Notes under the pieces: generated by a model
Seen by the model: only the letters and a program-made list of their open reading frames with translations
What the model was told of the DNA's origin: nothing
Database searches by the model: none
In this document: one piece after another, positions 4,587-31,694 of the stretch
Numbering within the stretch: position 1 is the stretch's first letter
Layout of the letters: each line of letters begins with the position of its first letter
Program-made: the position numbers and the translations under genes
Origin: Thermoanaerobaculia bacterium
Lineage (GTDB): Bacteria > Acidobacteriota > Thermoanaerobaculia > UBA5066
NCBI GenBank assembly: GCA_023717585.1
Contig: JAMQPJ010000216.1
Location: forward strand, 1 to 40,311
Length of the DNA: 40,311 nucleotides
Direction: 5' to 3'

Positions 4587-5003
4587 ATGACCCGGGAACA
4601 GATCGCCCTCGTCCGGAAGAGTTTCGATCGCCTTCGGCCGCTTCCGCGAGGCGCGGGACAGGATTTCTACGAGACGCTGTTCGCGTTGGACCCGTCCCTC
4701 CGCCCGCTCTTCTCCACGGATGTCGAGAATCAGGGAGCGATGTTCGTGGTGGCGCTCGGCCTCGCGCTGAAGGGCCTGGATGCCGATGCCGACGTGGACG
4801 CGTCGCTCCAGGAGCTTGGGCGCCGCCATGTGCTGTACGGCGCCAAGGACATCCACTTCGACACGTTCCGCGAGGCGCTCCTCTGCATGTTCGCGCAGCG
4901 TCTCGGCCCCGACTTCACGCCCGAGATGGCCGAAGCCTGGCGCGCCGCGTTCGACCGCATCAGCGCCGTCATGAAAAAGTCGGCGTCCGACGCCCGGGCG
5001 TAG
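4587..5003 (+). CDS. single-domain globin-family heme protein (sensor-globin-like)
   Basis: 138 aa. FYETLFALDPSLRPLF and LGRRHVLYGA (proximal His context) are typical of bacterial globins. Confidence 0.75.
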   Translation: MTREQIALVRKSFDRLRPLPRGAGQDFYETLFALDPSLRPLFSTDVENQGAMFVVALGLALKGLDADADVDASLQELGRRHVLYGAKDIHFDTFREALLCMFAQRLGPDFTPEMAEAWRAAFDRISAVMKKSASDARA

Positions 5004-6081: not shown

Positions 6082-6106
6082 GGGGGGAGATTCCTAATCT
6101 CCCCCC
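6082..6106. terminator. 11-bp perfect hairpin between convergent genes (GGGGGGAGATT-cct-AATCTCCCCCC)
   Basis: Arms 6082-6092 and 6096-6106, read directly. It overlaps the last codons and stop of the sigma-54 activator. No U-run on either side, so it is not a canonical intrinsic terminator. Confidence 0.35.
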
Positions 6107-8220
6107 GGACCCCCCTCGCGCTCCAGCCCGTACTTCTCGATGCGCGAGTAGAGCTGGGCCCGCGTGAGGCCCAGCAGCTTCGCGGCGCGGCTCTTGTTGA
6201 AGCGGGCCTTTCTGAGCGCCTCCTTCACGTAGTCGCGCTCGAGCGACTCGAGGTCCACGCCTGCGGGCGGCAGGAACGGATTCGTCGAGGCGGTCCCGGC
6301 GGCTGCGGCGCGCGGGGCGGAGCGCGTCGCCGGCGGATCCTGACGGGTGACACCGATGGGGAGATCGGCGGCCGTGATGAGGCCGCCGTCGGAGAGAATG
6401 GCGGCGCGCTCGAGCGCATTCCTGAGCTCGCGGACGTTGCCGGGCCACGGATAGGAGAGGAGAAGGTCCTTCGCCTCGCGCGAGACCCCGGGCACGGAAC
6501 GGCCGACCGCCGGGCCGAGCTCGGCGAGGAACATCTCGGTGAGGGGCAGGATGTCCTCGGGGCGCTCGCGCAGCGGCGGAAGATGGATCCCGAACACGGA
6601 GAGGCGGTAAAAGAGGTCTTCCCGGAACTCGCCCTTCTCGATCGCGCGGGCGAGGTCGCGGTTCGTGGCCGCCACGATGCGCGCGTCGGTCCTGAGCACC
6701 TTCGTCCCGCCCAGCCTCTGAAACTCGCGCTCTTCCAGGACCCGGAGGAGCTTCGCCTGCACGGCCGGGCTCATCTCGCCCGCCTCGTCGAGGAAGAGAG
6801 TGCCTCCCGCGGCCTGCTCGATGCGGCCGGCCTTCGCGGCCGTCGCGCCCGTGAAGGCGCCCTTCTCGTATCCGAACAGCTCGGATTCGAGAAGCTGGTC
6901 GGGCAGGGCCGCGCAGTTGAGCGCGATGAACGCGCCCGCCGCCCGCGCCGAGCTCCGGTGAATCGCGCGCGCGACGACTTCCTTCCCGGTTCCCGATTCG
7001 CCCGTGAGGAGAACGGTGGTCTCCGTGGGCGCGACCTTGGCGGCCTGAACGAGAACGTCGCGCCAGCACTTCGAGGTTCCCACGATCCGTCCGAAGCCGG
7101 CCCGCGAGGCGAGCTCTTCGGAAAGCGCCGCCACGCGCCTCTCGAGGCTCTCGGCCTCTGCCCGCGCCTCGGCGGCGCGGCGCGCCTCGCCCGCGAGCCG
7201 CTCGTGCGAAAGCGCGAGAGCGACCTGGTCCGCGACGTGCTGGGCGAACGGAACGTCGTCTTCGCTGTACGTGTTCGGCTTGCGCGAGAGAAAGAGGAGG
7301 CCGCCCGCGAACTGCCAGTGGCCTTCGAAGAAGATGGGGACGCGGAGGAGGGAACGCACGCCGTCGGCGGAGAGATGCCGGCATCTGTCGGAGTCCTTGT
7401 CGATTTCGGCGGAGACGTCCCGAACGATCTCCGTCGCCCAGTTCTCGCGCGCCTGTTCGGCGCGGGTCAGCCGGATCGGCTCGGCCACGTCCGGGAAATC
7501 GCCCCCCGAGACGGCGTAGACGCGCACCGCCGCGCGATCCTCGGTGAGGAGGCCGAGCGCCATCCGGTCGTGCGGGACGACCGGCCGCGCGATCTCCGAG
7601 ATGCGCTCGAAGACGTCCCGCACGTCGAGGGCCTTCGCGAGCGCGGGAGAGAGGGCCTGCAGGCTTTCGTACTTCCGGCGCCGGGCCTTCTCGTCCGCCG
7701 CGAGGCGCGCGTGCGCGACGGCCATCGCGACGACGTCCGCGATCGGCGTCAGGAGCGCCAGGTCGTCGCCGCAGAAGGCGCGCGGCTTCAGGCTGAGGAG
7801 CGAGAGGTTGCCGATCGTCCGCGCGCCGGCGTGGAGCGGCGCGCGCAGCATGGCGCGGACGCCGGAGTCGAGCAGCCTCCGGTCGCGCGGGAACGTCGGG
7901 TCGCACGCGGTGGCGACGTCGTCGATGACGCCGCCCTTGATGAGGATCTCCCACAGGCCGGTCGAGTACTCGGTGCGGGGCACCATCCGCGCATACGCGC
8001 GGCGCGCTTCGTCGCTGATCTCCGCGCCCCCGATCGAGTAGAGGGCGAGGCCGTCGCCCTCGTCGGTGAGCGTGACGGTCATCGCGTCGAACGTGAGGAC
8101 GCGGCCGGCCGCCGTCGCGATCCGATGGAAGACCTCCGGAAGGTCCAGCGTCTCGCCCGCGACGCGGGCGATCTCGGACAGGACCGGCACGAGGTCGGGC
8201 GGGGCGCCGGAAGTGGACAA
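6094..8220 (-). CDS. sigma-54-dependent transcriptional activator (bEBP) with two N-terminal GAF-like domains and Fis-type HTH
   Basis: AAA+ core with GESGTGKE Walker A, GAFTGA sigma-54 contact loop and TLFLDE Walker B. C-terminal [28 protein letters not shown]. Two ~170-aa GAF-like N-terminal modules. Confidence 0.9.
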
Positions 8221-8264: not shown

Positions 8265-9725
8265 ATGCCGATTCCCGCTACCGCCGCCGGCCTCGCCGAG
8301 GGGGTGCTCCAGCGCCGCGTTCCCGACGTCGCGCGTGCCATTTCGTGGGCCGAGAGCGGCGACGCCCGCTTTCCCGAGCTCCTCACCGCACTCTTCTCGA
8401 AGACCGGCCGCGCCCGCGTCACGGGTCTCACCGGATCGCCGGGAGCGGGCAAGTCGACGCTCACGGCCGCGCTCGCGCGGAAGGCCCGGGCGGCCGGGCG
8501 AAGGGTCGGTATCGTCGCCGTGGATCCCTCGTCGCCGTTCTCGGGAGGAGCGATTCTCGGCGACCGCATCCGGATGCAGGATCTCTACACGGATCCCGGG
8601 GTGCTCATCCGGTCGATGGCGACGCGCGGGAACCTCGGGGGCCTCGCGCGCGCGACGGCCGACGCCGTGGACGTGCTCGATGCCGCCGGCTACGACGACA
8701 TCCTCGTGGAGACGGTCGGCGTGGGCCAGGACGAGGTGGAGGTCTTCCGCCTCGCCGAGTCCTGCGTCGTCGTCCTGACGCCGGGGATGGGCGACGACAT
8801 CCAGGCCATCAAGGCGGGCCTCATGGAGGTCGCGGACCTCTTCGTCGTGAACAAGGCGGACCGCGACGGCGCCGACCGCGTCGTGCAGGAGATCCTCCAG
8901 ATGCTCGAGCTCGGGGAGCACGGCGCGTGGGTCCCTCCGATCCTGAAGACGGTCGCCACGACGGGCACCGGCATCGACGAGCTGATCGGAAAGCTGGAGG
9001 AGCACCGGAAGTTCCTGGATGGACCTCAGGGTGCGCGCAGGAAGAGCGAGCGAACGAGGATGCGGATCGAGGGGCTCATCAAAGAAGATTTTCTTAGAAG
9101 GGTAGAGAGCCTCAGGGGAGACAGCGGAGCGCTCGAAGCGGTCGCGGCGCGGGTGAACGCACGTATGGAAGACCCCTTGAGTGCCGCGCGCAGTCTGGTC
9201 GGCCGCATCGACCGTGGCTTCGCCGCCGCCGCCGAATCCCCCTCTTCACCTTCTAAGAAACTCCCCTTTTCGGAATTCCTTTCCAAAGAATCCCCCGTTC
9301 CGAAACCAGAAAATCTCGTTTCCCGTATCTCCCACCTCGGCATCGCCGTGAAATCGCTGGCCGAGGGAGGAGCGTTCTGGGACCTCCTCGGCCTCGTCGA
9401 GGAGCACCGCGAGGAGGTCGCGTCGCAGAAGGTCCTGACGTCGTTCCGGGCGGTCGGGGAGTCGCACCTGGAGCTTCTCGAATCGACGTCGCCCGACGGT
9501 CCGATCGCGAAGTCGATCGAGAAGCGCGGGCCGGGGATCCATCACCTGTGCGTCGAGGTGACGGACGTCCGCGCCGCGCTCGGGCGCCTGAAGGCCGCGG
9601 GCGTCCGGCTCGTGAACGAGGAGCCGTTCGACGGCGCTCACGACTGCCTCGTCGCGTTCGTCCACCCGTCCGCGACGGGCGGAATTCTCCTCGAGCTCTC
9701 GGAGAAGAAGGCGAAGGCGGACTGA
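8265..9725 (+). CDS. fusion: MeaB/ArgK G-protein chaperone + methylmalonyl-CoA epimerase (VOC fold)
   Basis: N-terminal part: GSPGAGKST P-loop, DPSSPFSGGAILGDR, ETVGVGQ, NKAD. C-terminal part from ~9318: ISHLGIAVKSL..., GPGIHHLCVEV, GILLELSE, typical of glyoxalase-fold epimerase. Low-complexity linker 9230-9317. Confidence 0.85.
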   Translation: MPIPATAAGLAEGVLQRRVPDVARAISWAESGDARFPELLTALFSKTGRARVTGLTGSPGAGKSTLTAALARKARAAGRRVGIVAVDPSSPFSGGAILGDRIRMQDLYTDPGVLIRSMATRGNLGGLARATADAVDVLDAAGYDDILVETVGVGQDEVEVFRLAESCVVVLTPGMGDDIQAIKAGLMEVADLFVVNKADRDGADRVVQEILQMLELGEHGAWVPPILKTVATTGTGIDELIGKLEEHRKFLDGPQGARRKSERTRMRIEGLIKEDFLRRVESLRGDSGALEAVAARVNARMEDPLSAARSLVGRIDRGFAAAAESPSSPSKKLPFSEFLSKESPVPKPENLVSRISHLGIAVKSLAEGGAFWDLLGLVEEHREEVASQKVLTSFRAVGESHLELLESTSPDGPIAKSIEKRGPGIHHLCVEVTDVRAALGRLKAAGVRLVNEEPFDGAHDCLVAFVHPSATGGILLELSEKKAKAD

Positions 9726-9751: not shown

Positions 9752-10018
9752 ATGTCGGCCATGAAACAAGGCGCGTCCATGCGGCGCACGACCGTCATGC
9801 TTCCCGCCGATCTCCGGCGACGCGCGTTCCGCCGCGCAAAGGAGCAGGGCGTGTCTTTCGGCGTGGTCGTCCGCGATTCGCTGGACGCCGCGCTGCCCGC
9901 CCTGGAGGGAACCAGCGGCGACGACACGCTGTTCGCGGACGGCGCCGTCTGGCGGGCCCGCGCGCCCCGCGCCCTCGCCCGCGAGCACGACCGTTTCCTC
10001 TACGACTCCGAGCCGTGA
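9752..10018 (+). CDS. vapB: VapB-like antitoxin (ribbon-helix-helix type)
   Basis: ATG 9752 in ORF 9548..10018. RRTTVMLPADLRRRAFRRAKEQGVSFGVVVRDSL looks like an RHH strand plus helices. The stop overlaps the GTG of the downstream PIN gene (GTGA). Exact start uncertain (9752, 9761 or 9779). Confidence 0.7.
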   Translation: MSAMKQGASMRRTTVMLPADLRRRAFRRAKEQGVSFGVVVRDSLDAALPALEGTSGDDTLFADGAVWRARAPRALAREHDRFLYDSEP

Positions 10019-10446
10019 TCTTCGTCGACACCGGCGCGTTCCTGGCGCGGTACGTCGAGGGCGACCAATATCACCGGGCCGCGGTTCGCGCGTGGAAACG
10101 TCTGGAGCGCTCGCCAGGGGCTCTCTTCACGTCCAGCTTCGTCGTGGACGAGACCCTCACGCTTCTCGGGCGGCGGACGACGTACGCGTTCGCGGCAGCG
10201 CGGGCCGACGCGCTGTACGCGTCGCGTGTGCTGACGATTCTCCGGCCGGACGCGGCGGACGAGTCCGCCGCCGTCGAGCTGCTCCGGAAGTTCGCGGACC
10301 AGAAGGTGAGCTTCACCGATTGTGTCTCGTTCGCCCTCATGCGCCGCCACACGCTGAAGAAGGCGTTCACGTTCGACCGCCATTTCGCGGTCGCGGGATT
10401 CGAGGTCTGGCCGGCTACCGGGCCCGAGGCCCGGTCAGGGCGGTGA
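10015..10446 (+). CDS. vapC: PIN-domain toxin VapC
   Basis: MIFVDTGAFLA (first acidic residue), VVDET, and FTDCVSFALM...FTFDRHF, the typical PIN acidic quartet context. 4-nt overlap with the antitoxin. Confidence 0.85.
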   Translation: MIFVDTGAFLARYVEGDQYHRAAVRAWKRLERSPGALFTSSFVVDETLTLLGRRTTYAFAAARADALYASRVLTILRPDAADESAAVELLRKFADQKVSFTDCVSFALMRRHTLKKAFTFDRHFAVAGFEVWPATGPEARSGR

Positions 10447-10493
10447 GGCTGTCGACGTGAGGGGATCGTGATCTCGTTCAGGGGAGGGAAGCC

Positions 10494-10829
10494 CTAGTTC
10501 GGGCTGCCGGCGTCGCCGGCGGGCTGCCGGGGCCCGAGAAAAGCGCGCACGTCGCATCCCACGATCTCGTAGAAGCGCTCGGCATAACTCGAGACGCTGC
10601 CGACGCGCGCGTCTTCGAAGAGCTTCTCGATGCGGTGCAGCGGCACGAAGAGCGTCGAGACGCCCAGCTCGGCCTCGGCTCCCGGCCTCTGCTGCCGGGC
10701 CCAGTCGTCGAAGAGATCGAGCTCGAGGCCGCGCAACGTCATTCCCGCGGGTCCGAGCGCGAGAAGGACGCCCCAGTACTTCTCCTTGGGCTGGACGAGA
10801 TGGACGAGGACGAGGGTGCCGGCGTCCAT
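10494..10829 (-). CDS. hypothetical protein (111 aa)
   Basis: Clean ORF with ATG start, 7 nt downstream of the co-directional secreted-protein gene. No family recognised. Confidence 0.55.
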   Translation of the reverse strand: MDAGTLVLVHLVQPKEKYWGVLLALGPAGMTLRGLELDLFDDWARQQRPGAEAELGVSTLFVPLHRIEKLFEDARVGSVSSYAERFYEIVGCDVRAFLGPRQPAGDAGSPN

Positions 10830-10836
10830 CCGGCCC

Positions 10837-11628
10837 TCAGAAGATCACGCGTGTCACGAAGTACTTCGCCGGGGAGATGCGCCCGTTGAGGAGCGCGTCC
10901 GCGTCGTCGGGGGTGACGTCGAAGCGCGCGGCCGACTCGCCGCCGGCGGTTGCGAGGACAACTTCGACCTTCTCGAGCGGCTTGCCCGCCGCGCGGGACT
11001 CCTTCAGGCCGCGCGCCGAGGCCATGAGCGCGAGAAAAACCTGCTGCTCACTGTCCGTCACGGCCTGCACGCGCAAGGCGGACGGAAGATTCGCGAGCTT
11101 GACGCCCTTCACATTGCTCCCGTCGAGCGCGCGCATGAAGGCATCGCTGACGACCGGGTCGAGGACGACCGGCGGCGCCTCGACGGCCCTGCTGGCCGCC
11201 CGGGGGGGGCGAGTCTGCCGTTCGGTCACGAGCTCTCCGAGCCGCGGCTCCGGGCGGTCGGGATCCGGCTGCCGGCCGTGTGTCTTGATGTAGTCCGAAA
11301 GGGACGGCTTCTTCGCCTCGGGGTTCGGCAGCGTCGAGGTGCCGCGGGTTCCGCTCGGATCGTCGAGCACGTAGGCGCCGCCGAGGCCTTCCCGGTTCGC
11401 CTTTTCGCTGCGCGCCTGATCCCATTCGTCGAGCGCGATCGTCTGGGACGTCCCGAGGGGGGTCATGTAGACGACACGCCGGCCCTGGACGACGGGCTTT
11501 TCGCGCGCCTCGATCCGCGCGCCGTCCCGCGTGTAGATGACGTACGTCGCATCCGCCGGGACGGCCGAGAAGACGGCGAGGGCGAGAGCGGCCGCCGACA
11601 GGAGGGGGGTGCGTGAGACTGTGGACAT
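10837..11628 (-). CDS. secreted hypothetical protein
   Basis: Internal Met (11628) of ORF 10837..12606. MSTVSRTPLLSAAALALAVFSAVPADA signal peptide. The upstream part of the long ORF is antisense to aroF. Confidence 0.7.
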   Translation of the reverse strand: MSTVSRTPLLSAAALALAVFSAVPADATYVIYTRDGARIEAREKPVVQGRRVVYMTPLGTSQTIALDEWDQARSEKANREGLGGAYVLDDPSGTRGTSTLPNPEAKKPSLSDYIKTHGRQPDPDRPEPRLGELVTERQTRPPRAASRAVEAPPVVLDPVVSDAFMRALDGSNVKGVKLANLPSALRVQAVTDSEQQVFLALMASARGLKESRAAGKPLEKVEVVLATAGGESAARFDVTPDDADALLNGRISPAKYFVTRVIF

Positions 11629-13899: not shown

Positions 13900-14763
13900 A
13901 TGAAGACAGGAATCCCCGTGTGTCTCGCAGGTATCGTCCTCGCCGCCGGAGCCGTGGCCTTGGCGCCGCGCGCCCTCGCCGCCGAAGGCAAGGCTGAGGG
14001 CACGCTCACCGTCAACGGCACCACGACGAAGCTCTCGTACGCGTACGCGCGCGCCGTGAAGGGCTTCTTCGACGAGAAGAAGGAGGACGTCGAGGTCGTC
14101 CTGAGCGACGTGCCGCTCGAGGCCAAGGCTCTCGAGGACCAGTTCGAACGCATGCGCATGGCGGACGCGGGCAAGCTCCACGCCTTCGAGATCAGGCTCG
14201 ACGCCGAAGGCAAGCCGATCTCCACGTCGTTCCGGGACAACGGCTTCAAGAAGGCGAGCCCGAGCGGCCTCTCCAGCGAGGACGTGTTCACGAAGAAGGT
14301 CTTTGACGGCAAGACCGTCGAGGGGAGCTACAGGAGCGCGAAAGAGAAGGAGTTCTTCGGGGAAATCTACGCCTTCGACGTGGCGTTCCGGGCGGACATC
14401 ACGCACGCGCCGAAGGTCGTGCCGCCCACCGCGGCCGAGACGGCGGCCGCCCGGAAGAGCCCGCAGGCGAAGGTCTACGCGGATTTCCTCAGGGCCATGC
14501 AGAAGGAGGACCTCGGGGCGCTCCGGAAGCTCTTCACGGTGGAGCAGGGGAAGAACCTCGACGATCCGGACGCGAAGAAGATGGTGAAGATGATCAAGAT
14601 GATGACTGCGACGGACATCCAGGTCCTCAAAGTCGTCGAGACGGGCGACAAGGCCGACCTCACCGTCACGGGCAAACAGGACGGCAACGTCACGAACGGC
14701 ATCGTCCACATGGTCAAAGAGGGCGGCTCGTGGAAGGTGCAGCGCGAGGAGTGGAAGAACTGA
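13900..14763 (+). CDS. secreted hypothetical protein
   Basis: Signal peptide MKTGIPVCLAGIVLAAGAVALAPRALAA, GGAGG RBS, 287 aa. No family recognised. Confidence 0.7.
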   Translation: MKTGIPVCLAGIVLAAGAVALAPRALAAEGKAEGTLTVNGTTTKLSYAYARAVKGFFDEKKEDVEVVLSDVPLEAKALEDQFERMRMADAGKLHAFEIRLDAEGKPISTSFRDNGFKKASPSGLSSEDVFTKKVFDGKTVEGSYRSAKEKEFFGEIYAFDVAFRADITHAPKVVPPTAAETAAARKSPQAKVYADFLRAMQKEDLGALRKLFTVEQGKNLDDPDAKKMVKMIKMMTATDIQVLKVVETGDKADLTVTGKQDGNVTNGIVHMVKEGGSWKVQREEWKN

Positions 14764-15992
14764 ACGTCCCCGCCTTCCTCGCGAAGCGGTTCCTGCTCGG
14801 CAGCCGGCGCGGGCTGCCGAAGACGGTTTCGCTCCTCGCCCTCTTCGGCGTCGCGCTCGGGGCGGCCTCGCTCGTCGTCGCGATGGGCCTCATGTCGGGC
14901 TACCGGCACGAGCTCGCCGAGAAGCTCGCGGGGACGAGCGCGGAAGTGATCGCCATGCCCGTGCCCGGCGCGAACGTGGAAGAGCAGCGTTCGGCGCTGC
15001 GCGCCCTTCCGAACGTGGCCGCCGTCGCCCGCACGGCGTTCGCTCCGGCGCTTCTGCTTTCGTCACGAGCTCCCGAGGGCGTCGACGCCCTCGTGAAGGC
15101 GCTCGAGCTGCCCGACGGCCTCACGACCACGAGGCTCCTCGGCGCCGTGCCCGGCCTCGCGAAGTCGTTCGGCGAGCTCGAGGCCAAGGGCGTGACGCCC
15201 GTCCTTCTCGGGGCGGGCCTCGCGAAGCGGCTCGGCGCTTCCCCGGGAGGAACGATCGTCCTCGAAACCTCGTCCGCCGCGCTCGCGGCCGGGCTCGCCG
15301 TGGCGGCGCGCACGCCCGTGACGGTCGCCGCGGTCGTCGAGACGGGCTTCTCCGAGGTGGACGACGGGTGGGTGGTGGTTCCGCTGGTCGTCTTCGAGAG
15401 GCTCGCGCCCCCGGGCGCCAGGCAGGGCGTCTGGGAAATGAAGCTCGTGAAGGCGTCCGCATCGGCGGAGACCGTCGCCGCGGCGCGAAAGCTCCTCGGC
15501 GAAAGCGCGACCGTGCTCGACTGGAAGGTCCTGAACCGCGACCTCTTCGAGGCGCTCGCCGTCCAGCAAACGCTCCTCTTCATCGTCCTGACGCTCATCG
15601 TGGCCGTGGCCGCGGGCACGGTCGTGTCGTCGCTCGTCGTCCTGCTCGCCGAAAAGACGCGGGACGTGGGGGTCCTCGCGGCGCTCGGAGCGTCGCCTGC
15701 GCTCGTGGCCCGCACGTTTCGCCTCTCGGGGATACTCCTCGGCGGGAGCGGCCTCGTCCTCGGCACTCTCTTCGGGCTCGCCGTGTGTTTTCTCCTCACG
15801 GTTTTCCGCGTCGTGCGCTTTCCCCCCGAGATCGCGAAGGTCTACTACCTCACGTGGATGCCGTTCCGGCCCGAGCCTCTTCACGTGCTCGGGATCCTCG
15901 CCGTCGGCCTCCTCCTCGTCCTCGGCGCGTCGGCGCTTCCCGCGCGCCGGGCCGCGCGGATGGATCCGGCGGAAGCCTTGCGCTACGAGTAG
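14730..15992 (+). CDS. LolC/LolE-type (FtsX-like) ABC transporter permease
   Basis: LAKRFLLGSRRG...VSLLALFGVALGAASLVVAMGLMSGY N-terminal TM, periplasmic MacB-like domain, and C-terminal FtsX TM bundle. Start uncertain (ATG 14730 overlaps the upstream gene; CTG 14760 is an alternative). No ATPase partner adjacent. Confidence 0.8.
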   Translation: MEGAARGVEELNVPAFLAKRFLLGSRRGLPKTVSLLALFGVALGAASLVVAMGLMSGYRHELAEKLAGTSAEVIAMPVPGANVEEQRSALRALPNVAAVARTAFAPALLLSSRAPEGVDALVKALELPDGLTTTRLLGAVPGLAKSFGELEAKGVTPVLLGAGLAKRLGASPGGTIVLETSSAALAAGLAVAARTPVTVAAVVETGFSEVDDGWVVVPLVVFERLAPPGARQGVWEMKLVKASASAETVAAARKLLGESATVLDWKVLNRDLFEALAVQQTLLFIVLTLIVAVAAGTVVSSLVVLLAEKTRDVGVLAALGASPALVARTFRLSGILLGGSGLVLGTLFGLAVCFLLTVFRVVRFPPEIAKVYYLTWMPFRPEPLHVLGILAVGLLLVLGASALPARRAARMDPAEALRYE

Positions 15993-16095
15993 CTGACGGG
16001 GATTCTGTCCTTGTTGGAGTAAGGACATGTCGAAGGTCACTACGGGGTCGGTCCTCGCGGTGAACCCGTTTCTCCGGGCGTAGACTTCCGCCTTC

Positions 16096-17547
16096 ATGAA
16101 ACCCCTCGCCGGACGGGTGGTCCTCGCCGCCGACCACGGCGGTTTCGCGCTGAAGGAAGCGATCAAGCGACACCTGGAGGCCGGGGGCGTCGACGTCCTC
16201 GATGTCGGGACGGGCTCGGCGGAGCCGTGCGATTACCCCGTTTTCGCGCGCGCCGCCGGGGAGGCCGTCGCCTCGGGTCGGGCCTGGCGGGGGGTCGTCG
16301 TCGACGGCGCCGGCATCGGATCTTCCATGGTCGCCAACAAGATCCCCGGGGTTCGCGCGGGAATGGCCTTCGACCTGGCCACCGCGCGGAACGCGCGGGA
16401 GCACAACGACGCCAACGTCCTGACGCTCGGCGCCGGCTACCTCGCAGAGGAGCTCGCGCTCCAGATCGTGGACGTCTTCCTGTCCACCGACTGCACCGTG
16501 GAGCGCCACAAGCGCCGTGTCGCTATGATCGACGCCATCGACAAGAGCCGCGGGAACACGCCGGAGGATCCGCGCCGTCCGCTGAGCTCGAGGAGTTCGC
16601 CGTCCATGGCCTCACCCGATTTCGATTCGCTCGTCGGCCGGATCACCCAGATCCTGACCTCGAATCCCTCGCTCCTCGTCCCGCCGACGTGCGGAGGGTC
16701 GATGGCGGGAGGCGACGCCTGCACCGGCTGCCCCATCGGCGGCCACTGCGCGACCCGTTGCGCCGACACGGTCCGTTCAATGATCGCGTGCGTGGGCCCG
16801 GGGTGCCGGGTGTCGGGCGCGCCGGGAGGCGGCGAGGTGCCCAAGGACCTGGCCGGCTTCATCGACCACACTCTCCTCCGCGCAGACGCCACGTACGCGG
16901 ACATCGACAAGCTGTGCGACGAGGCCGCCCAGTTCGGCTTCGCCTCCGTCTGCGTCAACCCGATCTTCGTCAGGCGTTGCGCCGCCCGCCTCGTCGGCCG
17001 CTCCCCGGTCGTCTGCTCGGTTGTGGGCTTTCCGCTGGGGGCCGCGTCCAGGGAGATCAAGTCGCTTGAGGCGCGGCGTGCCATCCGCGACGGGGCGAGC
17101 GAGATCGACATGGTGATCGCGATCGGGGCGCTCAAGTCGGGCGACCTCCGATACGTGGAGGACGACATCCGGGCGGTGGCCGAAACGGCCCACGACGGCG
17201 GCGCGATCCTCAAGGTGATCCTGGAAACAGCGCTCCTGACCGACGACGAGAAAGTGGCCGGCTGCGTGGCGGCCCGCAAGGCCCGGGCGGAGTTCGTGAA
17301 GACTTCGACCGGCTTCTCCACCGGCGGCGCGACCGCCCACGACGTGGAGCTCATGGCGCGGGCCGTCGACCGGAAGCTCGGCGTGAAGGCGTCGGGAGGG
17401 ATCCGGTCGGCCGAAGACGCCGAGAAGCTCATCGCGGCCGGCGCCACCCGGATCGGTGCCTCGGTCGGCGTGAAGATCGTCAAGGAGGCCCGGGGGATCG
17501 CCGCCTCGTCGAAGAGCGGGGCGAAAGAGGCCAAAGGGACGTATTGA
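16096..17547 (+). CDS. fusion: RpiB/LacAB-family sugar-phosphate isomerase + deoxyribose-phosphate aldolase (DeoC), joined by amphipathic helix and 7-Cys linker
   Basis: N-terminal part: [29 protein letters not shown] (RpiB family). C-terminal part: [20 protein letters not shown] (Schiff-base Lys), VKASGGIR (DeoC). Linker holds [17 protein letters not shown] and C-x9-C-x2-C-x5-C-x3-C-x9-C-x4-C. Confidence 0.9.
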
Positions 17548-18182
17548 TGGCCGACCTCCGGAGCTTCGTCTACCTCGACTCGATGCAGCCGCAGGTCGCG
17601 GCCTACATCGGGACGGTTGCCCGTGGTTTCCTCCCGGTCGCCTACGAGGCCTCCCTGATCGTCGAGATCTCGCCCGGCATCGAGATCAACCGCGTGACCG
17701 ACGTCGCCGTCAAGGCGACCGATGTCCGCCCCGGCATGCAGGTCGTCGAGCGGCTCTACGGAATGCTCGAGATTCACAGCCGCTCGCAGGCCGAGGTGCG
17801 GCAGGCCGGCGCTGCCATCCTCGCCGCCCTCTCCCTTCAGGAGACCGACCGGATCAAGCCGCGGGTCCTCTCCTCGCAGGTCATCCGGCGCGTGGACGCC
17901 CTTCAGGCGCAGCTCATCAACCGCGACCGGCAGGGGATGATGCTGGTGGCCGGCGAGTCGCTCTACATCCTGGAGGTCGAGCCCGCGGCGTACGCGGCCT
18001 TCGCGGCGAACGAGGCCGAGAAGGCGGCGGAGATCAACGTGGTGGACGTCCGGATGACCGGGGCGTTCGGGCGCGTCTACCTCGGGGGAGAGCAGCGCGA
18101 CATCGACGTGGCCTCGGTCGCGGCCATCCGGGCGATCGAGTCGCTCACCGGGCGCGACGCGCAGAAGGGCCGGAGGGACTGA
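17547..18182 (+). CDS. BMC-T shell protein, CcmP/CsoS1D-like tandem permuted BMC domains
   Basis: [25 protein letters not shown]...[19 protein letters not shown]...VERLYG...QAQLINR...[22 protein letters not shown] closely tracks CcmP as I remember it. ATG overlaps the upstream stop (TGATG). TTG at 17544 is an alternative start. Confidence 0.85.
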
Positions 18183-18186
18183 GCCC

Positions 18187-18810
18187 GTGATCGACCTCCG
18201 CAGCTACGTCTTCCTCGACTCGCTTCAGGAGCAGCACGCGGCTTTCCTGGGGACGGTCGCGAAAGGCTTCCTGCCCGTCGGCGGACAGGCTTCCCTTTTC
18301 ATCGAGGTCTCACCCGGGATCGCGATCAACCGGCTCACCGACATCGCGGTAAAGACCACCTCCGTCACGCCCGGGATGCAGATCGTCGAACGGCTCTACG
18401 GCCTCCTCGAGGTCCACCACGACGAGCAGGCGGAGGTGCGCCGCGCGGGTGAGGCGATCCTCCGGGAGATCGGCAAGACGGAAGGCGACCGGATCAAACC
18501 CGAGATCCTTTCCTCGACCGTGATCCGGGGCCTCGACGACCGGCAGACGCAGCTCATCAACCGGACCCGCCACGGCCACATGATCGTGGCGGGCCAGTCG
18601 CTCTACATCCTGGAATGCCAGCCCGCCGCGAACGCGGCGCTGGCGGCGAACGAGGCGGAGAAGGCCGCGCGCATCAAAGTGCTGGAGATCGTCTCGTTCG
18701 GGTCGTTCGGGCGGGTCTACCTGGCGGGAGCGGACCGCGACATCGACGTCGCCCTGCCCGCGGCCGAACGGGCGATCCAGGGCCTTTCCGGGCGCGCCGC
18801 GAAGTCTTGA
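18187..18810 (+). CDS. BMC-T shell protein, second CcmP/CsoS1D-like paralogue
   Basis: Clear paralogue of the preceding gene ([25 protein letters not shown]...[19 protein letters not shown]...). GTG start 4 nt after the upstream stop. Confidence 0.85.
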
Positions 18811-18873
18811 GAAAACGTCATGCAACACCGAAGCTCAGAGAAAAGGGTGTAGAACCGAACAGGGAGGATCGAA

Positions 18874-19194
18874 ATGGCTGAAGCACTGGGAATGATCGAG
18901 TGCCGCTCCTTCGCGGCGATGGTCGAAGCGGCCGACGCGATGGTGAAGGCCGCGAAGGTGGAGCTCGTGAGCTACGAGAAGACGGGGGGCGGCTACGTGA
19001 CCGCCATCATCCGGGGCGACGTCGCGGCCGTGAAGGCGGCCGTGGACGCGGGGCAGAACGGGGCGGCGCGCGTCGGCGACATCGTCACGACCCACATCAT
19101 CGCCCGCCCGCACGTCAACGTCGACCTCGTCCTCCCGCTCGGCCGAAAGGCCGAGGTCGAGAAGGAGATCGGCGCGCACGGCGGCAAGAAGTAG
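18874..19194 (+). CDS. BMC-H hexameric shell protein (PduA/EutM/CcmK type)
   Basis: ALGMIECRSFAAMVEAADAMVKAAKVELVSYEKTGGGYVTAIIRGDVAAVKAAVDAG is a canonical PF00936-type domain. GGGAGGA RBS. Confidence 0.95.
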   Translation: MAEALGMIECRSFAAMVEAADAMVKAAKVELVSYEKTGGGYVTAIIRGDVAAVKAAVDAGQNGAARVGDIVTTHIIARPHVNVDLVLPLGRKAEVEKEIGAHGGKK

Positions 19195-19227
19195 GCGGAG
19201 CGGCGGTGAACGGGAGGCGGTGAGGCC

Positions 19228-19545
19228 ATGCTCCTGGCAAAAGTCGTCGGGACCGTCGTGGCGACGCGGAAGGACCCCCGGATCGAGGGGCTCAAGTTCC
19301 TCCTGCTTCGGCAGGTGAACCCCGAGAACCTCAAAGAGGGCGGCTTCGTGGTCGCGAATGACGCCGTGGGCTGCGGCCTGGGCGAGTACGTGCTCTATGC
19401 CTCAGGCTCCTCCGCCCGCCAGACAGAGGTCACGAAGGACCGCCCCTGCGACGCGGTCATCATGGCGATCGTGGACACCTGGGAGATAGGCGGCCAGACC
19501 CTCTTCGAGAAGAGCTCGTCCGAGCACGGGTACAGAGGCGCCTGA
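19228..19545 (+). CDS. BMC-P pentameric vertex protein (EutN/CcmL/PduN type), copy 1
   Basis: [30 protein letters not shown]...AVIMAIVD is the typical EutN/CcmL fold signature. Confidence 0.9.
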
Positions 19546-19564
19546 CCATGGAGCGGGTTGAACC

Positions 19565-20992
19565 ATGAGCTCGGCATACAGCCCCGAGCAGATCCGGCGC
19601 CTGGCCGAGGTCATCGCCCGCGAGATCATGCCGGAAGCGGGCGCGGGGCCCCCGCCGCCTGCGGCCGGAGGCGGTGTCTTCCCGAGCCTCGACGACGCCG
19701 TCGCGGCGGCCGCCGTCGCCTTCAAGGCACTCGATGCTCTCGGTCTCGAGAAGCGACACGAGGTCATCGCATCCATGCGCGACGCCATGCGGCAGAACGC
19801 GCATTCCCTCGCGGCGCTGGCCGTCGAGGAGACGGGGCTGGGGCGCGCCGAGGACAAGGTCCAGAAGAACCTCCTCGTCACGAACAAGACGCCGGGCCCC
19901 GAAGAGCTGACGCCTGCGGCCGGGTCGGGGGACCGCGGCCTCGTCCTCGTCGAGCCGGCTCCCTTCGGCGTCATCGGGGCGATCACGCCGGTCACGAACC
20001 CCTCCTCCACGATCATCTGCAACTCCATCGGCATGGTGGCCGCGGGGAACAGCGTGGTGTTCAACCCGCACCCGTCGGCCAGGCGCGTCTCTCAGGAGAC
20101 GGTCCGCCTGCTCGCCGCGGCGATCGTGAAGGCGGGCGGACCGCCGAACACGGTCACCTGCACGGCCGAACCGACGATCCAGTCCGCGGGCGAGCTGATG
20201 AAGCACCCCCGCGTCCGGCTGCTGGTCGTCACGGGCGGCGGTGCCGTCGTGGCCGCCGCGATGAACTCCGGCAAGCGCGCCATCTGCGCCGGGCCCGGCA
20301 ACCCGCCGGCCATCGTCGACGAGACCGCCGACATCGGGAAGGCCGGACGCGACATCGTCTTCGGCCACTCGTTCGACAACAACGTCATCTGCACGGACGA
20401 GAAAGAGGTCATCGCAGTCGACTCAATCGCCGACGCGCTGAAGGGGGCGATGGTGAAGGCCGGGGCTTTCGAGCTTCCCGCCCGCGACCTCTCGCGCCTC
20501 GAGAACGTGATCTTCGAGAAGGGGGCCGGGCCGCGGGGTCACGCCGTGGTCAACAAGAAATACATCGGCAAGAACGCGTCGGTCATCCTCCGGGAGCTGG
20601 GCATCACGGCGGGGCCCGAGGTGCGAACGATCCTCGTGGAAGTGCCGAACGAGCACCCTCTCGTCTGGACAGAGCAGATGATGCCGGTCCTCCCTTTGAC
20701 GCGCGTGAAGAACGTGAGCGAGGCGATCGACCTCGGCGTCGCGGCCGAGGGCGCGTGCTTCCACACCGCGTCCATGCACTCGCACGACCTCGCGGCCCTC
20801 TCCACGATGGCGCGCCGGTGCAACTGCTCGATCTTCGTAAAAAACGGCCCCAACCTGGCGGGCCTCGGGTTCGGAGGCGAAGGGCACACCTCGTTCACGA
20901 TCGCGTCGCCGACGGGCGAAGGGATGACGAGCCCGCGGTCGTTCTCAAGGTGGCGCCGCTGCACGCTCGTCGACCATTTCCGGATCGTGTGA
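19565..20992 (+). CDS. CoA-acylating aldehyde dehydrogenase (PduP/EutE-like) with N-terminal encapsulation-peptide-like helix
   Basis: FGVIGAITPVTNP, GPGNPPAIVDETADI, and FDNNVICTDEKE (catalytic Cys context) of BMC-associated AldDH. The N-terminus PEQIRRLAEVIAREIM is followed by a Pro/Ala/Gly linker. Confidence 0.9.
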   Translation: MSSAYSPEQIRRLAEVIAREIMPEAGAGPPPPAAGGGVFPSLDDAVAAAAVAFKALDALGLEKRHEVIASMRDAMRQNAHSLAALAVEETGLGRAEDKVQKNLLVTNKTPGPEELTPAAGSGDRGLVLVEPAPFGVIGAITPVTNPSSTIICNSIGMVAAGNSVVFNPHPSARRVSQETVRLLAAAIVKAGGPPNTVTCTAEPTIQSAGELMKHPRVRLLVVTGGGAVVAAAMNSGKRAICAGPGNPPAIVDETADIGKAGRDIVFGHSFDNNVICTDEKEVIAVDSIADALKGAMVKAGAFELPARDLSRLENVIFEKGAGPRGHAVVNKKYIGKNASVILRELGITAGPEVRTILVEVPNEHPLVWTEQMMPVLPLTRVKNVSEAIDLGVAAEGACFHTASMHSHDLAALSTMARRCNCSIFVKNGPNLAGLGFGGEGHTSFTIASPTGEGMTSPRSFSRWRRCTLVDHFRIV

Positions 20993-20999
20993 CGAAGGC

Positions 21000-21605
21000 G
21001 TGATGGAGAAGAGCCCCGGCCCCGCCCTCGCGATGCTCCTCCTCGGCGAGATTCCGCCGGGCCTGCACGTTCTCGACGCGTTGGCCAAGGAGGCGGAGGT
21101 GGTGGTGCTCCAGGCGGGCACGATCCACTGCGGCCGTTACCTGATCCTGTTCGGCGGCGAGGTCGGGCCGGTGGAGCGCTCGTGGCGCCGGGCGCTCGAC
21201 CTCTCGGGCTCGCACGTCGTCGACGAGGTGCTCCTCCCGCACGCCGAGCCTCGCCTCGCGCCCGCGATCGGGACGGGGGTGATCCGCTGGCCCGCCCCCG
21301 GCGACACGCTCGGCGTTCTGCAGGCCACGACTCCGCCGGCTCTCGTCCGCGCCGTCGACGCCGCGCTCAAGGGGGCGCTCGTCGACCTCGTGGAGCTGCG
21401 CGTGGGGGACGGGCTCGGCGGGAAGGCGATCGCGAGCCTCTGGGGCGAGACGCACGACGTGGAGGCCGCGATCGAAATCGCGCGCGCCTCCTTCGAGAAG
21501 ACGAGCGCCGCGGGCGCTTCGACCGCGGTCATCCCGCGGGCGGACCCGGCCGTCCGGGAGGCTCTCGGCTCGGGGAGCCGCTTCTTCAAGGAGTTCCGGG
21601 GATGA
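21000..21605 (+). CDS. BMC-T shell protein, PduT-like tandem BMC domains
   Basis: Two BMC-like halves (ALAMLLLGEIPPGLHVLDALAKEAEV...LILFGGEVGPV and LGVLQATTPPALVRAVDAALKGALV...ASLWGETHDVEAAIE). GTG 21000 or ATG 21003 as start. Confidence 0.8.
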   Translation: MMEKSPGPALAMLLLGEIPPGLHVLDALAKEAEVVVLQAGTIHCGRYLILFGGEVGPVERSWRRALDLSGSHVVDEVLLPHAEPRLAPAIGTGVIRWPAPGDTLGVLQATTPPALVRAVDAALKGALVDLVELRVGDGLGGKAIASLWGETHDVEAAIEIARASFEKTSAAGASTAVIPRADPAVREALGSGSRFFKEFRG

Positions 21606-21889
21606 AATTGGGGAGGGTCATCGGCACGCTGGTGGCGACGGAGAAGCCCGACGCGATGAAGGGGCTCAAGCTCCTGATCGTCCGGCCGCTCACGGCGGAT
21701 CTGAAGGACGACGGCGAGCCGTTCGTCGCCACCGACGCGTCGGCGCAGGCCTCCTCGGGCGACCTCGTCACGTGGGAGGCGTCACGCGAGGCCGCGCTTC
21801 TCCACGACCCGTGGTTCATTCCGGTGGATCACGCCGTCGTCGGGATCGTCGACCAGCACTCCCTCGAGAATCCGGAGCGGGCCCGATGA
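21602..21889 (+). CDS. BMC-P vertex protein, copy 2
   Basis: ATG 21602 within ORF 21182..21889. MKLGRVIGTLVATEKPDAMKGLKLLIVRPL...AVVGIVD. ATGA overlap with the upstream stop. Confidence 0.85.
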   Translation: MKLGRVIGTLVATEKPDAMKGLKLLIVRPLTADLKDDGEPFVATDASAQASSGDLVTWEASREAALLHDPWFIPVDHAVVGIVDQHSLENPERAR

Positions 21890-22173
21890 TCCTCGGACGC
21901 GTCCTCGGAACGGTGGTCAGTACCGTCCAGCATCCCTTCTATGCCGGGAGAAAACAGCTTCTCGTGGGAGCCGTTCTGCCGGACGGAACGCTCGACGGCA
22001 CCCGGTACATCCTCGCGCTCGACATGGTCGGGGCCGGCGTGGGCGAAACCGTCCTCGTGGAGGACGAGGGAAACTCCGCGCGCCAGATCCTCGGCGACCC
22101 GAAAGCGCCGGTGAGGTCGCTCATCGTCGCGATCGTGGACGAAGTGGACGTGCCGGTGCCCGGCGGGGACTAG
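21886..22173 (+). CDS. BMC-P vertex protein, copy 3
   Basis: ATG 21886 within ORF 21772..22173. MILGRVLGTVVSTVQHPFYAGRKQLLV...LIVAIVDEV. ATGA overlap with the upstream stop. Confidence 0.85.
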   Translation: MILGRVLGTVVSTVQHPFYAGRKQLLVGAVLPDGTLDGTRYILALDMVGAGVGETVLVEDEGNSARQILGDPKAPVRSLIVAIVDEVDVPVPGGD

Positions 22174-22188
22174 AGAGAAACCCGGCTG

Positions 22189-22578
22189 TCACTCCCACAC
22201 GCGCTCGACACCGTGTCCGTCGAGCGCTTCGTCCGCGCTGAGAAGACGTGACGACGTCACCCTGGCTGCCGTGAGGATCAGGCGGTCCATCGGATCACGA
22301 ACCGCCGGCAGAGACGCGAATCCGAGCGCCTGTTCGAGATCCAGGGCAAGAACGGCATACCCGTCGTGCGCTGCGAGAGCTTCGGCGACCTGGGCGGGGC
22401 CGGCGCGGAGGCGCCCCTTTTCGTAGAGAAGCGCGACCTCGACGAGCGCGATGGCCGGTATGTAGCAGAGGGCCTGCCCCCGGTCCGCCGAGCGGAAGGC
22501 CCTTCGGGCGGCCTTTCCCAGGCGCTTCTCGTCCATCAAGTGCCAGACGAGGGCGTGCGTGTCCGCGACGAACGTCAC
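22189..22578 (-). CDS. vapC: PIN-domain toxin VapC
   Basis: GTG start (22578) inside ORF 22189..22872. VTFVADTHALVW..., ALVEVALL, PMDRLILTAA: PIN acidic residues. Convergent with the BMC operon end (15-nt gap). Confidence 0.8.
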   Translation of the reverse strand: MTFVADTHALVWHLMDEKRLGKAARRAFRSADRGQALCYIPAIALVEVALLYEKGRLRAGPAQVAEALAAHDGYAVLALDLEQALGFASLPAVRDPMDRLILTAARVTSSRLLSADEALDGHGVERVWE

Positions 22579-22847
22579 GGAATGCGGCGAGAGCGCGGGT
22601 CGAGCGACCGCGAGAGCTCGCGCCGGGCGGCGCGGAAGTCCGAGAGGTCCGGCACGATTCCGCCGTCGAGGACGTTCGCGAGGATCCGGGTCGGGGGGCG
22701 AATCCGCCCTTCGTCCGCCGCGGCGAGACCCGCCTCGACGAGACGCTCCACCTGCTGCGACAGCGAGCGTCCCTCGCGCCGGGCGGCCTGCTCGATGCGC
22801 CCGCGCGTCCGGCGAGGCAGGCGCACCGTGAGAACGGCGTCCTTCAT
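22575..22847 (-). CDS. vapB: RHH/CopG-type antitoxin (VapB-like)
   Basis: ATG 22847 in frame of ORF 22575..23480. MKDAVLTVRLPRRTRGRIEQAARREGRSLSQQVERLVEAGL is a ribbon-helix-helix signature. 4-nt GTGA overlap with vapC. Confidence 0.75.
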   Translation of the reverse strand: MKDAVLTVRLPRRTRGRIEQAARREGRSLSQQVERLVEAGLAAADEGRIRPPTRILANVLDGGIVPDLSDFRAARRELSRSLDPRSRRIP

Positions 22848-22866
22848 GTATGCGAATGTATGCGAA
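22847..22866. repeat. perfect 10-bp tandem direct repeat (TGTATGCGAA x2) at the vapB start, followed by inverted repeat ATGCG-aac-CGCAT (22860-22872)
   Basis: Read directly from sequence. It sits at and just upstream of the vapB start codon on the minus strand, where TA autoregulatory operators normally lie. Confidence 0.5.
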
Positions 22867-22924
22867 CCGCATCGACTCGTCAACGGCCTGAACTCGCGGG
22901 CCCGTTTGCCCGAGAGGGAGGAAG

Positions 22925-31563: not shown

Positions 31564-31694
31564 AGGTTCGCGCCGGGAGGCCGGTCTGGTGCGTAGGGTA
31601 CAACCTCGGAGCCGATTCGCGTGGCCCGTCAGGGCCGGGCGTAAACTTTCCACCCCTCGAATGCGTCCGAATCTCATCTGTGGAGGATTCGAAG

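Follow-up and report, generated by a model that had tools for sequence, protein, structure and literature searches.

The occurrence of seven predicted shell-protein genes beside only two enzyme genes, on a 40,311-nt contig of a Thermoanaerobaculia bacterium (JAMQPJ010000216.1, assembly GCA_023717585.1; this whole stretch is referred to below as the window), raises the question of which type of bacterial microcompartment (BMC) is encoded there and what substrate it would degrade. The evidence assembled here argues that the locus, at 16096-22173 on the + strand, is a complete and intact single-operon microcompartment of the SPU3 subtype, one of the sugar-phosphate-utilising (SPU) types, and that it most likely degrades deoxyribose-5-phosphate (dR5P); the probability of this reading is put at roughly 0.8. 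The locus is an ordinary further case of the catalogued SPU3 type and not a new system.

Nine open reading frames (ORFs), here numbered g1 to g9, lie closely packed on the + strand from 16096 to 22173, at the coordinates given by an initial annotation that had been made from the sequence alone. Their order is an RpiB-DERA fusion (an RpiB-like domain joined to a deoxyribose-phosphate aldolase, DERA), two double-stacking BMC-T proteins (BMC-Tdp), BMC-H, BMC-P, an aldehyde dehydrogenase (AldDH), a single-layer BMC-T protein (BMC-Ts) and two further BMC-P, with all shell genes and both enzymes in a single operon of 6.1 kb. The tiny gaps and overlapping junctions that the annotation had reported were all found in the sequence: the stop codon of g1 overlaps the ATG of g2 in a TGATG at 17545-17549, ATGA stop/start overlaps occur at 21602-21605 and 21886-21889, and the remaining intergenic gaps measure 4, 63, 33, 19 and 7 nt. 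Because of the TGATG overlap, ATG 17547 is more likely to be the start of g2 than the mechanically listed TTG 17544. The GC content at third codon positions (GC3) of the nine ORFs is 0.90-0.95, and the ratio of nonsynonymous to synonymous substitution rates (dN/dS), taken against one orthologous locus, is 0.08-0.18 in every one of them; the nine ORFs are therefore real genes under purifying selection and not chance ORFs. Pfam searches and matches to solved structures bore out the initial tally of seven genes for the shell and two for enzymes: four PF00936-type genes (g2, g3, g4 and g7) and three PF03319 genes (g5, g8 and g9) stand beside the two enzyme genes, the composition of a BMC locus. 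The expected Pfam families were clearly recognised in seven of the nine proteins; g2 and g3 are only borderline for PF00936 and are yet strongly matched by solved tandem-BMC proteins.

The signature enzyme is the product of the first gene, g1 (16096..17547, +), a fusion protein of 483 aa in which Pfam recognises LacAB_rpiB (PF02502; 9e-47, aa 8-145) followed by DeoC (PF01791; 1e-15, aa 256-461). An in-frame TAG lies five codons before the start of g1, and no N-terminal extension of the protein is therefore possible. The TIM barrel of the class I DERA (aa 250-466; 16843..17493, +) has the DERA 8qps as its best solved match (2e-67), is by eye about 60% identical to solved DERAs, and scores 247.6 bits against the NCBIfam deoC equivalog, for which the cut-off is 117.3. 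The catalytic residues D338, K402 (Schiff base) and K431 are all present, and the triad is invariant in 33/33 fusion orthologues; the gene thus supplies the SPU signature, a pfam01791 DERA with an intact Asp/Lys/Lys triad in a shell locus. In the AlphaFold2 (AF2) model of g1, with a mean pLDDT of 72.5, both enzyme domains are confident and the pLDDT of the DERA is mostly >80. A near-invariant Tyr at the C-terminus of g1 was considered as a functional tail motif and rejected; its conservation more likely reflects the AAAGGGA ribosome-binding site of g2 and the TGATG overlap, which sit in the last codons of g1.

The second enzyme, g6 (19565..20992, +), is a CoA-acylating AldDH of the PduP/EutE type, the acylating dehydrogenase that belongs to an SPU locus. 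It matches Pfam Aldedh (2e-34), the NCBIfam model NF011927 (629.7, above a cut-off of 403) and the BMC-associated acylating AldDH 5jfl (3e-130), and in the alignment with 5jfn the modified catalytic Cys of that structure falls opposite the Cys in FDNNVICTDEKE. Both enzymes carry a putative encapsulation peptide (EP). At the N-terminus of g6 (aa ~5-22; 19577-19630, +) a predicted amphipathic helix is followed by a Pro/Gly/Ala linker, and the helix EQIRRLAEVIAREI (aa 8-21) has a hydrophobic moment of 0.81, beyond the 99th percentile, and is conserved in orthologues. In g1, a Pro/Ser-rich disordered linker precedes an internal amphipathic helix (aa ~173-190; 16612..16665, +) whose hydrophobic moment of 0.53 reaches at least the 95th percentile among the 14-mers of these proteins; AF2 places a helix at aa 176-189 between disordered segments, and L179, V180, I183 and L187 are invariant in the orthologue alignment. 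An internal EP-like sequence between the two domains has been described for SPU3 fusions (Sutter et al. 2021, PMC8217296, Suppl. Data 2).

Among the shell proteins, the main tile is the BMC-H hexamer g4 (18874..19194, +; Pfam BMC, 2e-29), whose closest solved relative is HO-5815 of Haliangium ochraceum (HO; 3e-41) and in which the edge motifs KAAK and RPH can be read from the sequence. The two BMC-Tdp paralogues, g2 (17547..18182, +) and g3 (18187..18810, +), are 65% identical to each other and CcmP-like, CcmP being the best solved match of both (5e-81 and 1e-74, respectively); g2 is closer to HO BMC-T2 (Hoch_5816, or HO-5816; 2e-70) and g3 to HO BMC-T3 (5v76; 2e-72, against 8e-70 for HO-5816). 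Their PF00936 scores are 22.0 and 24.8 bits for a cut-off of 24.5, and with the NCBIfam CcmP equivalog they reach 323 and 308 bits, in both cases just under the cut-off of 340. A Glu-Arg pair aligned with CcmP residues 69-70 is kept in both paralogues (E68-R69 in g3); in CcmP and CsoS1D this is presumably the pair that gates the pore.

The single-layer protein g7 (21000..21605, +), the start codon of which may be the ATG at 21003, resembles PduT and HO-5812, with two BMC domains (2e-21) and matches to PduT (2e-19) and HO 5dih (2e-18). A role as an iron-sulfur PduT, by way of Cys44, was rejected: the position of the Fe-S ligand Cys38 in PduT is taken by His43, and Cys44 next to it varies between C, G and P in orthologues. 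Thus g7 is a BMC-Ts lacking the pore Cys, and no PduS partner was seen in the main ORFs of the window. The three pentameric vertex proteins are g5 (19228..19545, +; EutN_CcmL 4e-27), closest among solved proteins to the HO pentamer 5v74_A1 (3e-34), g8 (21602..21889, +; EutN_CcmL 1e-19), which is 32-33% identical to the other two, and the last gene of the operon, g9 (21886..22173, +; EutN_CcmL 9e-21), which is 40% identical to g5. They are thus mutually 32-40% identical, and each holds its position in orthologous loci; it is on sequence identity and position, and not on the green, grey and orange colour clades of the catalogue, that they are called a BMC-P triplet here. The predicted shell inventory, with one BMC-H, one single-layer BMC-T, two double-stacking gated BMC-T and three BMC-P, is that of the solved H. 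ochraceum shell, and the seven proteins would be expected to assemble into a shell.

SPU loci were named in 2014, when the aldolase-isomerase fusion was already noted (Axen et al., PMC4207490), and the 2021 catalogue listed >280 of them in 26 phyla and seven subtypes (Sutter et al., PMC8217296). For SPU3 the catalogue describes an AldDH with pfam01791 and pfam02502, the latter two joined in 12 of the loci then known, with pfam02502 as the N-terminal part (PMC8217296, Suppl. Data 2); EPs on the AldDH N-terminus and between the fused domains; a shell of one BMC-H, a BMC-P triplet, a CcmP-like BMC-Tdp and a BMC-Ts without PduS partner or pore cysteine; and Acidobacteria among the host phyla. Three years later 20 SPU3 loci with the fusion were reported (Dwyer, Sutter, Kerfeld 2024, PMC11585597). 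The enzymes of the present locus are the AldDH and the pfam02502-pfam01791 fusion only. Of the main ORFs in the 40 kb window, none encodes a phosphotransacylase (PTAC) or PduS, and helices with the physico-chemical properties of EPs lie at the N-terminus of g6 and between the two domains of g1.

To place the locus among its relatives, the fusion protein was used in a scan with one genome per species. This returned 224 relatives, and the nine window proteins were mapped onto the 80 loci that were kept, with ~10 kb around each match. The nine-gene order is complete in 19 of these loci, and in four others it is truncated where the contig ends; the loci belong to metagenome-assembled genomes of Thermoanaerobaculia/Acidobacteriota (80-99% aa identity) and to Polyangiaceae (56-90%), and hence to two phyla. 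By these identities the window itself most likely derives from a Thermoanaerobaculia-like acidobacterium. Loci from Chloroflexia, Sulfomarinibacteraceae, Calditrichaceae and other groups keep the order with one Tdp, RpiB and DERA being mostly separate, overlapping genes. The cultivated Minicystis rosea DSM 24000 has the identical nine-gene order, at 56-90% aa identity, and the tree files of the catalogue give the label bmcType=SPU3 (main) to two of its shell proteins, A7982_04319 and A7982_04323 (PMC8217296). The placement of the window operon with SPU3 thus comes from nine-gene synteny with a labelled locus, and not from the clustering pipeline of the catalogue.

The initial annotation had read the operon as an SPU/HO-like metabolosome, and this stands, since the DERA signature enzyme, the PduP/EutE-type AldDH and the HO-like shell set are all present. 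The novelty attached to that reading does not survive, the locus fitting a catalogued and partly characterised type. It had further been stated that the class was known mainly from locus catalogues, with substrate and role untested. The second half of this holds for physiology, as an in vivo role is still undemonstrated for any SPU compartment, and no longer holds for biochemistry: a truncated, purified DERA of the SPU6 subtype cleaves dR5P with a reported Km of 0.104, in the sub-millimolar range, and this DERA forms a stable complex with its ribose-5-phosphate isomerase homologue (RPI), which is itself essentially inactive on ribose-5-phosphate (R5P; Dwyer 2024, PMC11585597). SPU compartments have since been extended to Asgard archaea, with self-assembly of the shell reported (2025 preprint, PMC12747264).

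From the intact active sites found here and the in vitro data on the SPU6 homologue, a pathway can be proposed. 2-Deoxyribose-5-phosphate from the breakdown of DNA or deoxynucleosides would enter the shell, where the DERA domain would split it into glyceraldehyde-3-phosphate, which would leave for glycolysis, and acetaldehyde. The trapped acetaldehyde would then be oxidised by the acylating AldDH with NAD+ and CoA, giving acetyl-CoA and NADH. Both enzymes would be recruited as cargo by their amphipathic helices, that of the AldDH at its N-terminus and that of the fusion between the RpiB-like and DERA domains; amphipathicity and conservation suggest this targeting role. Among the main ORFs of the window there is no PduL/PTAC, alcohol dehydrogenase, PduS, triose-phosphate isomerase, class II aldolase or deo gene, and no regulator or transporter attributable to the compartment, as the initial annotation had noted for PduL/Pta, alcohol dehydrogenase, regulator and transporter. 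The absence of PTAC, alcohol dehydrogenase, regulator and PduS is typical of SPU3 and not peculiar to this locus. Of a complete metabolosome core (signature enzyme, AldDH, PTAC and alcohol dehydrogenase), the part that would recycle CoA and NAD+ internally, PTAC with alcohol dehydrogenase or else PduS, is accordingly lacking from the operon and from these ORFs. Because nothing for such recycling is encoded, acetyl-CoA/CoA and NADH/NAD+ would have to pass the shell, and the likeliest route is the pair of CcmP-like BMC-T proteins with their large gated pores. A BMC-Tdp is the usual companion of SPU types that have no PTAC, and its pores have been proposed to carry large metabolites (Dwyer 2024, PMC11585597).

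The N-terminal half of the fusion makes the nature of the substrate less straightforward. When the RpiB-like domain (aa 8-151; 16117..16548, +) was aligned residue by residue with the RpiB proteins of E. coli (1nn4/2vvr) and C. thermocellum (3he8), the catalytic Cys66 of E. coli was found to be replaced by Asp70 and Thr68 by Ala72, so that the pair of residues marking a canonical ribose-5-phosphate isomerase B is missing, whereas D13, H14, H103, N104, R137 and R141 are retained (E. coli D9, H10, H99, N100, R133 and R137). Asp stands in place of Cys66 in all 33 of the 33 fusion orthologues, in which Ala for Thr68 and the retained residues likewise do not vary, and the same replacement has been reported for all SPU RPIs (Dwyer 2024, PMC11585597). 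The domain passes the RpiB/LacA/LacB family models, and with 125.3 bits falls below the NCBIfam rpiB equivalog cut-off of 138.65. The RpiB half had at first been taken for a working R5P isomerase, an assignment at odds with the loss of the catalytic Cys; as this residue is absent, the domain is more likely to be an oligomerising or packaging scaffold for the DERA than an R5P isomerase.

A compartment that is real but acts on something other than dR5P deserves most attention among the alternatives, although we consider it unlikely. The RpiB-like domain, with Asp as catalytic base, would then isomerise another sugar phosphate that either feeds the aldolase or is made by it. Many RpiB and DERA enzymes are promiscuous, and the checked active-site residues are kept except Cys66 and Thr68, with Asp70 invariant in 33/33 orthologues, a pattern that speaks of selection on the site in a domain still recognised by the RpiB/LacA/LacB models. 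The RpiB of M. tuberculosis is active with Glu in place of the Cys, and rare sugar phosphates have been left open as SPU substrates (both in Dwyer 2024, PMC11585597). What speaks for dR5P is the aldolase itself, a high-scoring deoC equivalog with an intact triad, the SPU6 counterpart of which cleaves dR5P at sub-millimolar Km beside an RPI of negligible activity on R5P (PMC11585597). As dR5P has no C2 hydroxyl, DERA needs no prior isomerase step, and the operon encodes no transketolase or other enzyme that would link an isomerase to the aldolase. The SPU3 reading with dR5P as substrate is set with still greater assurance against the view that the locus is an HO-type compartment, a type whose function is listed as unknown. 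This view draws on the shell: one BMC-H, one Ts, two Tdp and three BMC-P make up the HO model shell, HO proteins are the closest solved matches of g4 (3e-41) and g5 (3e-34), and they come just behind CcmP for g2 and g3 and just behind PduT for g7. In the catalogue, HO and SPU are moreover said to have common BMC-Tdp clades, a BMC-P triplet and related AldDHs (PMC8217296). The catalogue text consulted, however, mentions a pfam01791 aldolase in HO genomes only at other genomic locations, and places a different aldolase with two BMC-P in the HO satellite or type II main locus. An in-operon RpiB-DERA signature enzyme is the defining feature of SPU, here it is the first gene, and the syntenic M. 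rosea locus is labelled SPU3. The HO class was rejected on these grounds, its shell set fitting and its enzymes not, and we regard it as very improbable.

Still less probable, in our estimate, is an operon that has fallen silent or is in decay, or one that encodes shell structure alone, in either case without a working metabolosome. A simple sigma-70 promoter scan found no promoter, and a terminator scan found one site, outside the operon, which is fewer than in shuffled sequences (mean 2.7); the main ORFs of the window also offer no regulator, transporter or cofactor-recycling enzyme. Against this stand the genes themselves. All nine are intact with coding-type GC3 and a dN/dS of 0.08-0.18 throughout, the catalytic residues of DERA and AldDH are in place, the overlapping stop/start junctions, which indicate translational coupling, are retained, and the gene order is maintained in 19 genomes of two phyla.

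Some considerations nevertheless weigh against an intact SPU3 compartment that degrades dR5P. The experimental evidence for action on dR5P comes from an SPU6 DERA in vitro, and not from an SPU3 locus or from any SPU compartment in vivo. Cofactor exchange through the BMC-Tdp pores is hypothetical. The lack of pduL/pta, adh and deo genes was judged from the main ORFs of the window, and the EP assignments (internal in g1, N-terminal in g6) are based on amphipathicity and conservation and not on the EP hidden Markov models of the catalogue. Since the other checked RpiB active-site residues are kept, the RpiB-like domain may have a different catalytic activity. Finally, the published SPU model does not account for a conserved Cys-rich stretch that precedes the DERA barrel.

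This stretch (aa 199-237; 16690..16806, +) lies between the internal helix and the barrel of g1 and contains C199, C209, C212, C218, C222, C232 and C237, with a core of C-x2-C-x5-C-x3-C that includes His217, a His described as conserved. Of the 33 fusion orthologues, 31 have C212, 30 have C218 and 22 have C222. At least three Cys occur within the 60 aa before the barrel in 61 of 72 N-terminal extensions of SPU-type DERAs, from loci of many phyla and whether or not the DERA is fused to RpiB; Chloroflexia, Terriglobia and Bryobacterales commonly show C-x2-C-x3-C-x3-C, and Polyangiaceae C-x2-C-x2-C. The motif is missing from plain DERAs without an extension and from a few SPU clades. When the 80-aa linker (aa 170-249) served as a phmmer query, 1.84 billion representative proteins yielded only 3 matches, the region being too divergent for a single-sequence search; because of this insensitivity, the spread of the motif was judged from the 80 fetched loci. 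When five linker variants were scanned at E up to 10, no Pfam family was matched in the Cys-rich region. One Terriglobia variant gave a Fer4_6 match of 16.4 bits, below the cut-off of 25, which was not counted as evidence for a ferredoxin fold. The AF2 pLDDT of the linker and Cys region is <60, so that the model gives no structural support to a metal site.

Neither the main text of Dwyer 2024 (PMC11585597) nor the SPU3 text of the catalogue (PMC8217296) mentions the motif. One tentative reading, less likely than not, is that it binds a metal or an iron-sulfur cluster, or acts as a redox-sensitive switch based on a disulfide, and in this way would control cargo condensation, shell docking or electron exchange. 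If this were true, a function would be added in a compartment class without PduS or internal cofactor recycling, and it could explain why full-length SPU DERAs are insoluble when expressed in E. coli.

Several observations concern the relatives rather than the window operon itself. The shell proteins are 82-90% identical between the window operon and those of M. rosea and other Polyangiaceae, with a synonymous divergence (dS) of 0.5-1.0, an estimate made unreliable by the extreme GC3 bias. This high shell identity together with a dS of only 0.5-1.0 suggests that the whole nine-gene operon may have been transferred between acidobacterial and myxobacterial phyla. In Terriglobia/Bryobacterales (L024, L026, L028, L030-L032, L034, L048, L049, L058, L062, L065, L068, L073, L079 and L080), RpiB(Asp)-DERA fusions or adjacent pairs were found with EP-like helices and the Cys motif, the match lying at ~10001-11400 in most; some of the RpiB parts are extended at the N-terminus by ~70-80 aa. 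Within the +/-10 kb fetched around these matches neither a shell gene nor an AldDH gene was seen, and the neighbours in L026 are a GH32 glycosidase and a molybdopterin oxidoreductase. Such loci are either satellites of a distant shell locus or free-standing enzymes. Among the other loci, L010, L012 and L020 have 0.2-3 kb of extra sequence between shell genes (between the second Tdp gene, Tdp_b, and BMC-H, or between BMC-P genes), in L010 a short tandem repeat of the CCCCAGT type precedes the operon, and several genes of L015 and of L036 are apparently frameshifted, probably through long-read assembly errors.

The region upstream of g1 (15993..16095, +) contains a conserved GGGCGTAGACTTC element (16070-16095), which is kept in ~10 Thermoanaerobaculia orthologous loci, including L001, L002, L006, L007, L009, L011, L021 and L036. 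Within it, a -10-like TAGACT at 16081-16086 stands 9 nt before the g1 ATG. Because of this spacing and because no Shine-Dalgarno sequence precedes g1, the operon transcript may be leaderless or carry only a very short leader; a promoter function of the element is an inference. Upstream of the region lie a MacB_PCD and FtsX permease (14730-15992) and, further away, DAHP synthase, the carbamoyl-phosphate synthase small chain and a DUF4878 protein. Downstream, a convergent PIN-domain gene (22189-22872, -) begins 15 nt past g9, and just upstream of it on the - strand a ribbon-helix-helix antitoxin-like ORF of ~90 aa (~22575-22847) gives an RHH_5 match of 4e-05, under the Pfam cut-off. The flanks described initially as a LolC/E permease and a convergent VapBC pair were thus recovered, the antitoxin partner being weak. 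As the PIN domain begins only at aa 102 of the maximal ORF of 227 aa, the true start of the PIN gene is probably internal. PD40/WD40 Ser/Thr kinases lie beyond it.

Elsewhere in the window, a second PIN-domain (VapC-like) gene was found at 10015-10446 (+), and a single ORF at 8265-9725 (+) encodes a MeaB-type GTPase (methylmalonyl-CoA mutase chaperone) fused to a glyoxalase/VOC domain of the methylmalonyl-CoA-epimerase kind. A sigma-54 activator with two or three GAF domains (6094-8220, -), a small globin (4587-5003, +) and a PSCyt2/PSD1 (DUF1549/DUF1553) protein (31680-33740, +) have no visible link to the compartment.

The locus adds one more Acidobacteriota example of SPU3. Since the cultivable M. 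rosea carries the same operon, the SPU3 type is experimentally accessible, and the sequence bears on how NAD+ and CoA are recycled in 'incomplete-core' metabolosomes, on the RpiB-like module with Asp for Cys66 and on the Cys motif of the DERA extension.

Compared with the published text on SPU3, the locus is alike in its enzyme set and fusion, its EPs, its single BMC-H, BMC-P triplet, CcmP-like Tdp and PduT-like Ts, and in having no PTAC. Its sole departures from that picture are the undiscussed Cys motif and a second tandem BMC-Tdp, found here and in the Thermoanaerobaculia/Polyangiaceae relatives and common to catalogued ones, where the text mentions one. The SPU6 enzymes of Chloroflexi bacterium GWB2_54_36 are the only SPU enzymes characterised biochemically (Dwyer 2024, PMC11585597), and both systems have a DERA with the Asp/Lys/Lys triad and an N-terminal extension, beside an RpiB homologue with Asp for Cys66. 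In SPU6 the DERA and RPI associate, and fusion turns this association into a permanent one here. The RPI and DERA of SPU6 come from separate genes, its AldDH has the EP at the C-terminus, and it has a BMC-Tdp of another clade, a GntR regulator and a EutQ-like protein; these features are all absent from the window operon. The two BMC-Tdp are about as similar to CcmP of the beta-carboxysome, a gated double-stacking BMC-T like CsoS1D of the alpha-carboxysome, as to any metabolosome protein; a carboxysome was nonetheless rejected, as the locus is without RuBisCO, carbonic anhydrase and CcmM/N.

The HO main locus is given no RpiB-DERA signature enzyme in the catalogue, which calls its function enigmatic (PMC8217296). 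In its tiles the HO model shell (PDB 5V74 and related structures) is the same as that predicted here, with BMC-H, single-layer BMC-T1, double-stacking BMC-T2/T3 and three BMC-P, and the matches given above for g4 (HO-5815), g2 (HO-5816), g3 (5v76), g5 (5v74_A1) and g7 (5dih) run from 2e-18 for g7 to 2e-72 for g3. The shell genes of HO lie scattered at several places in the genome; the practical value of the present locus is that a full HO-like shell set and its presumed native cargo come together in one compact operon.

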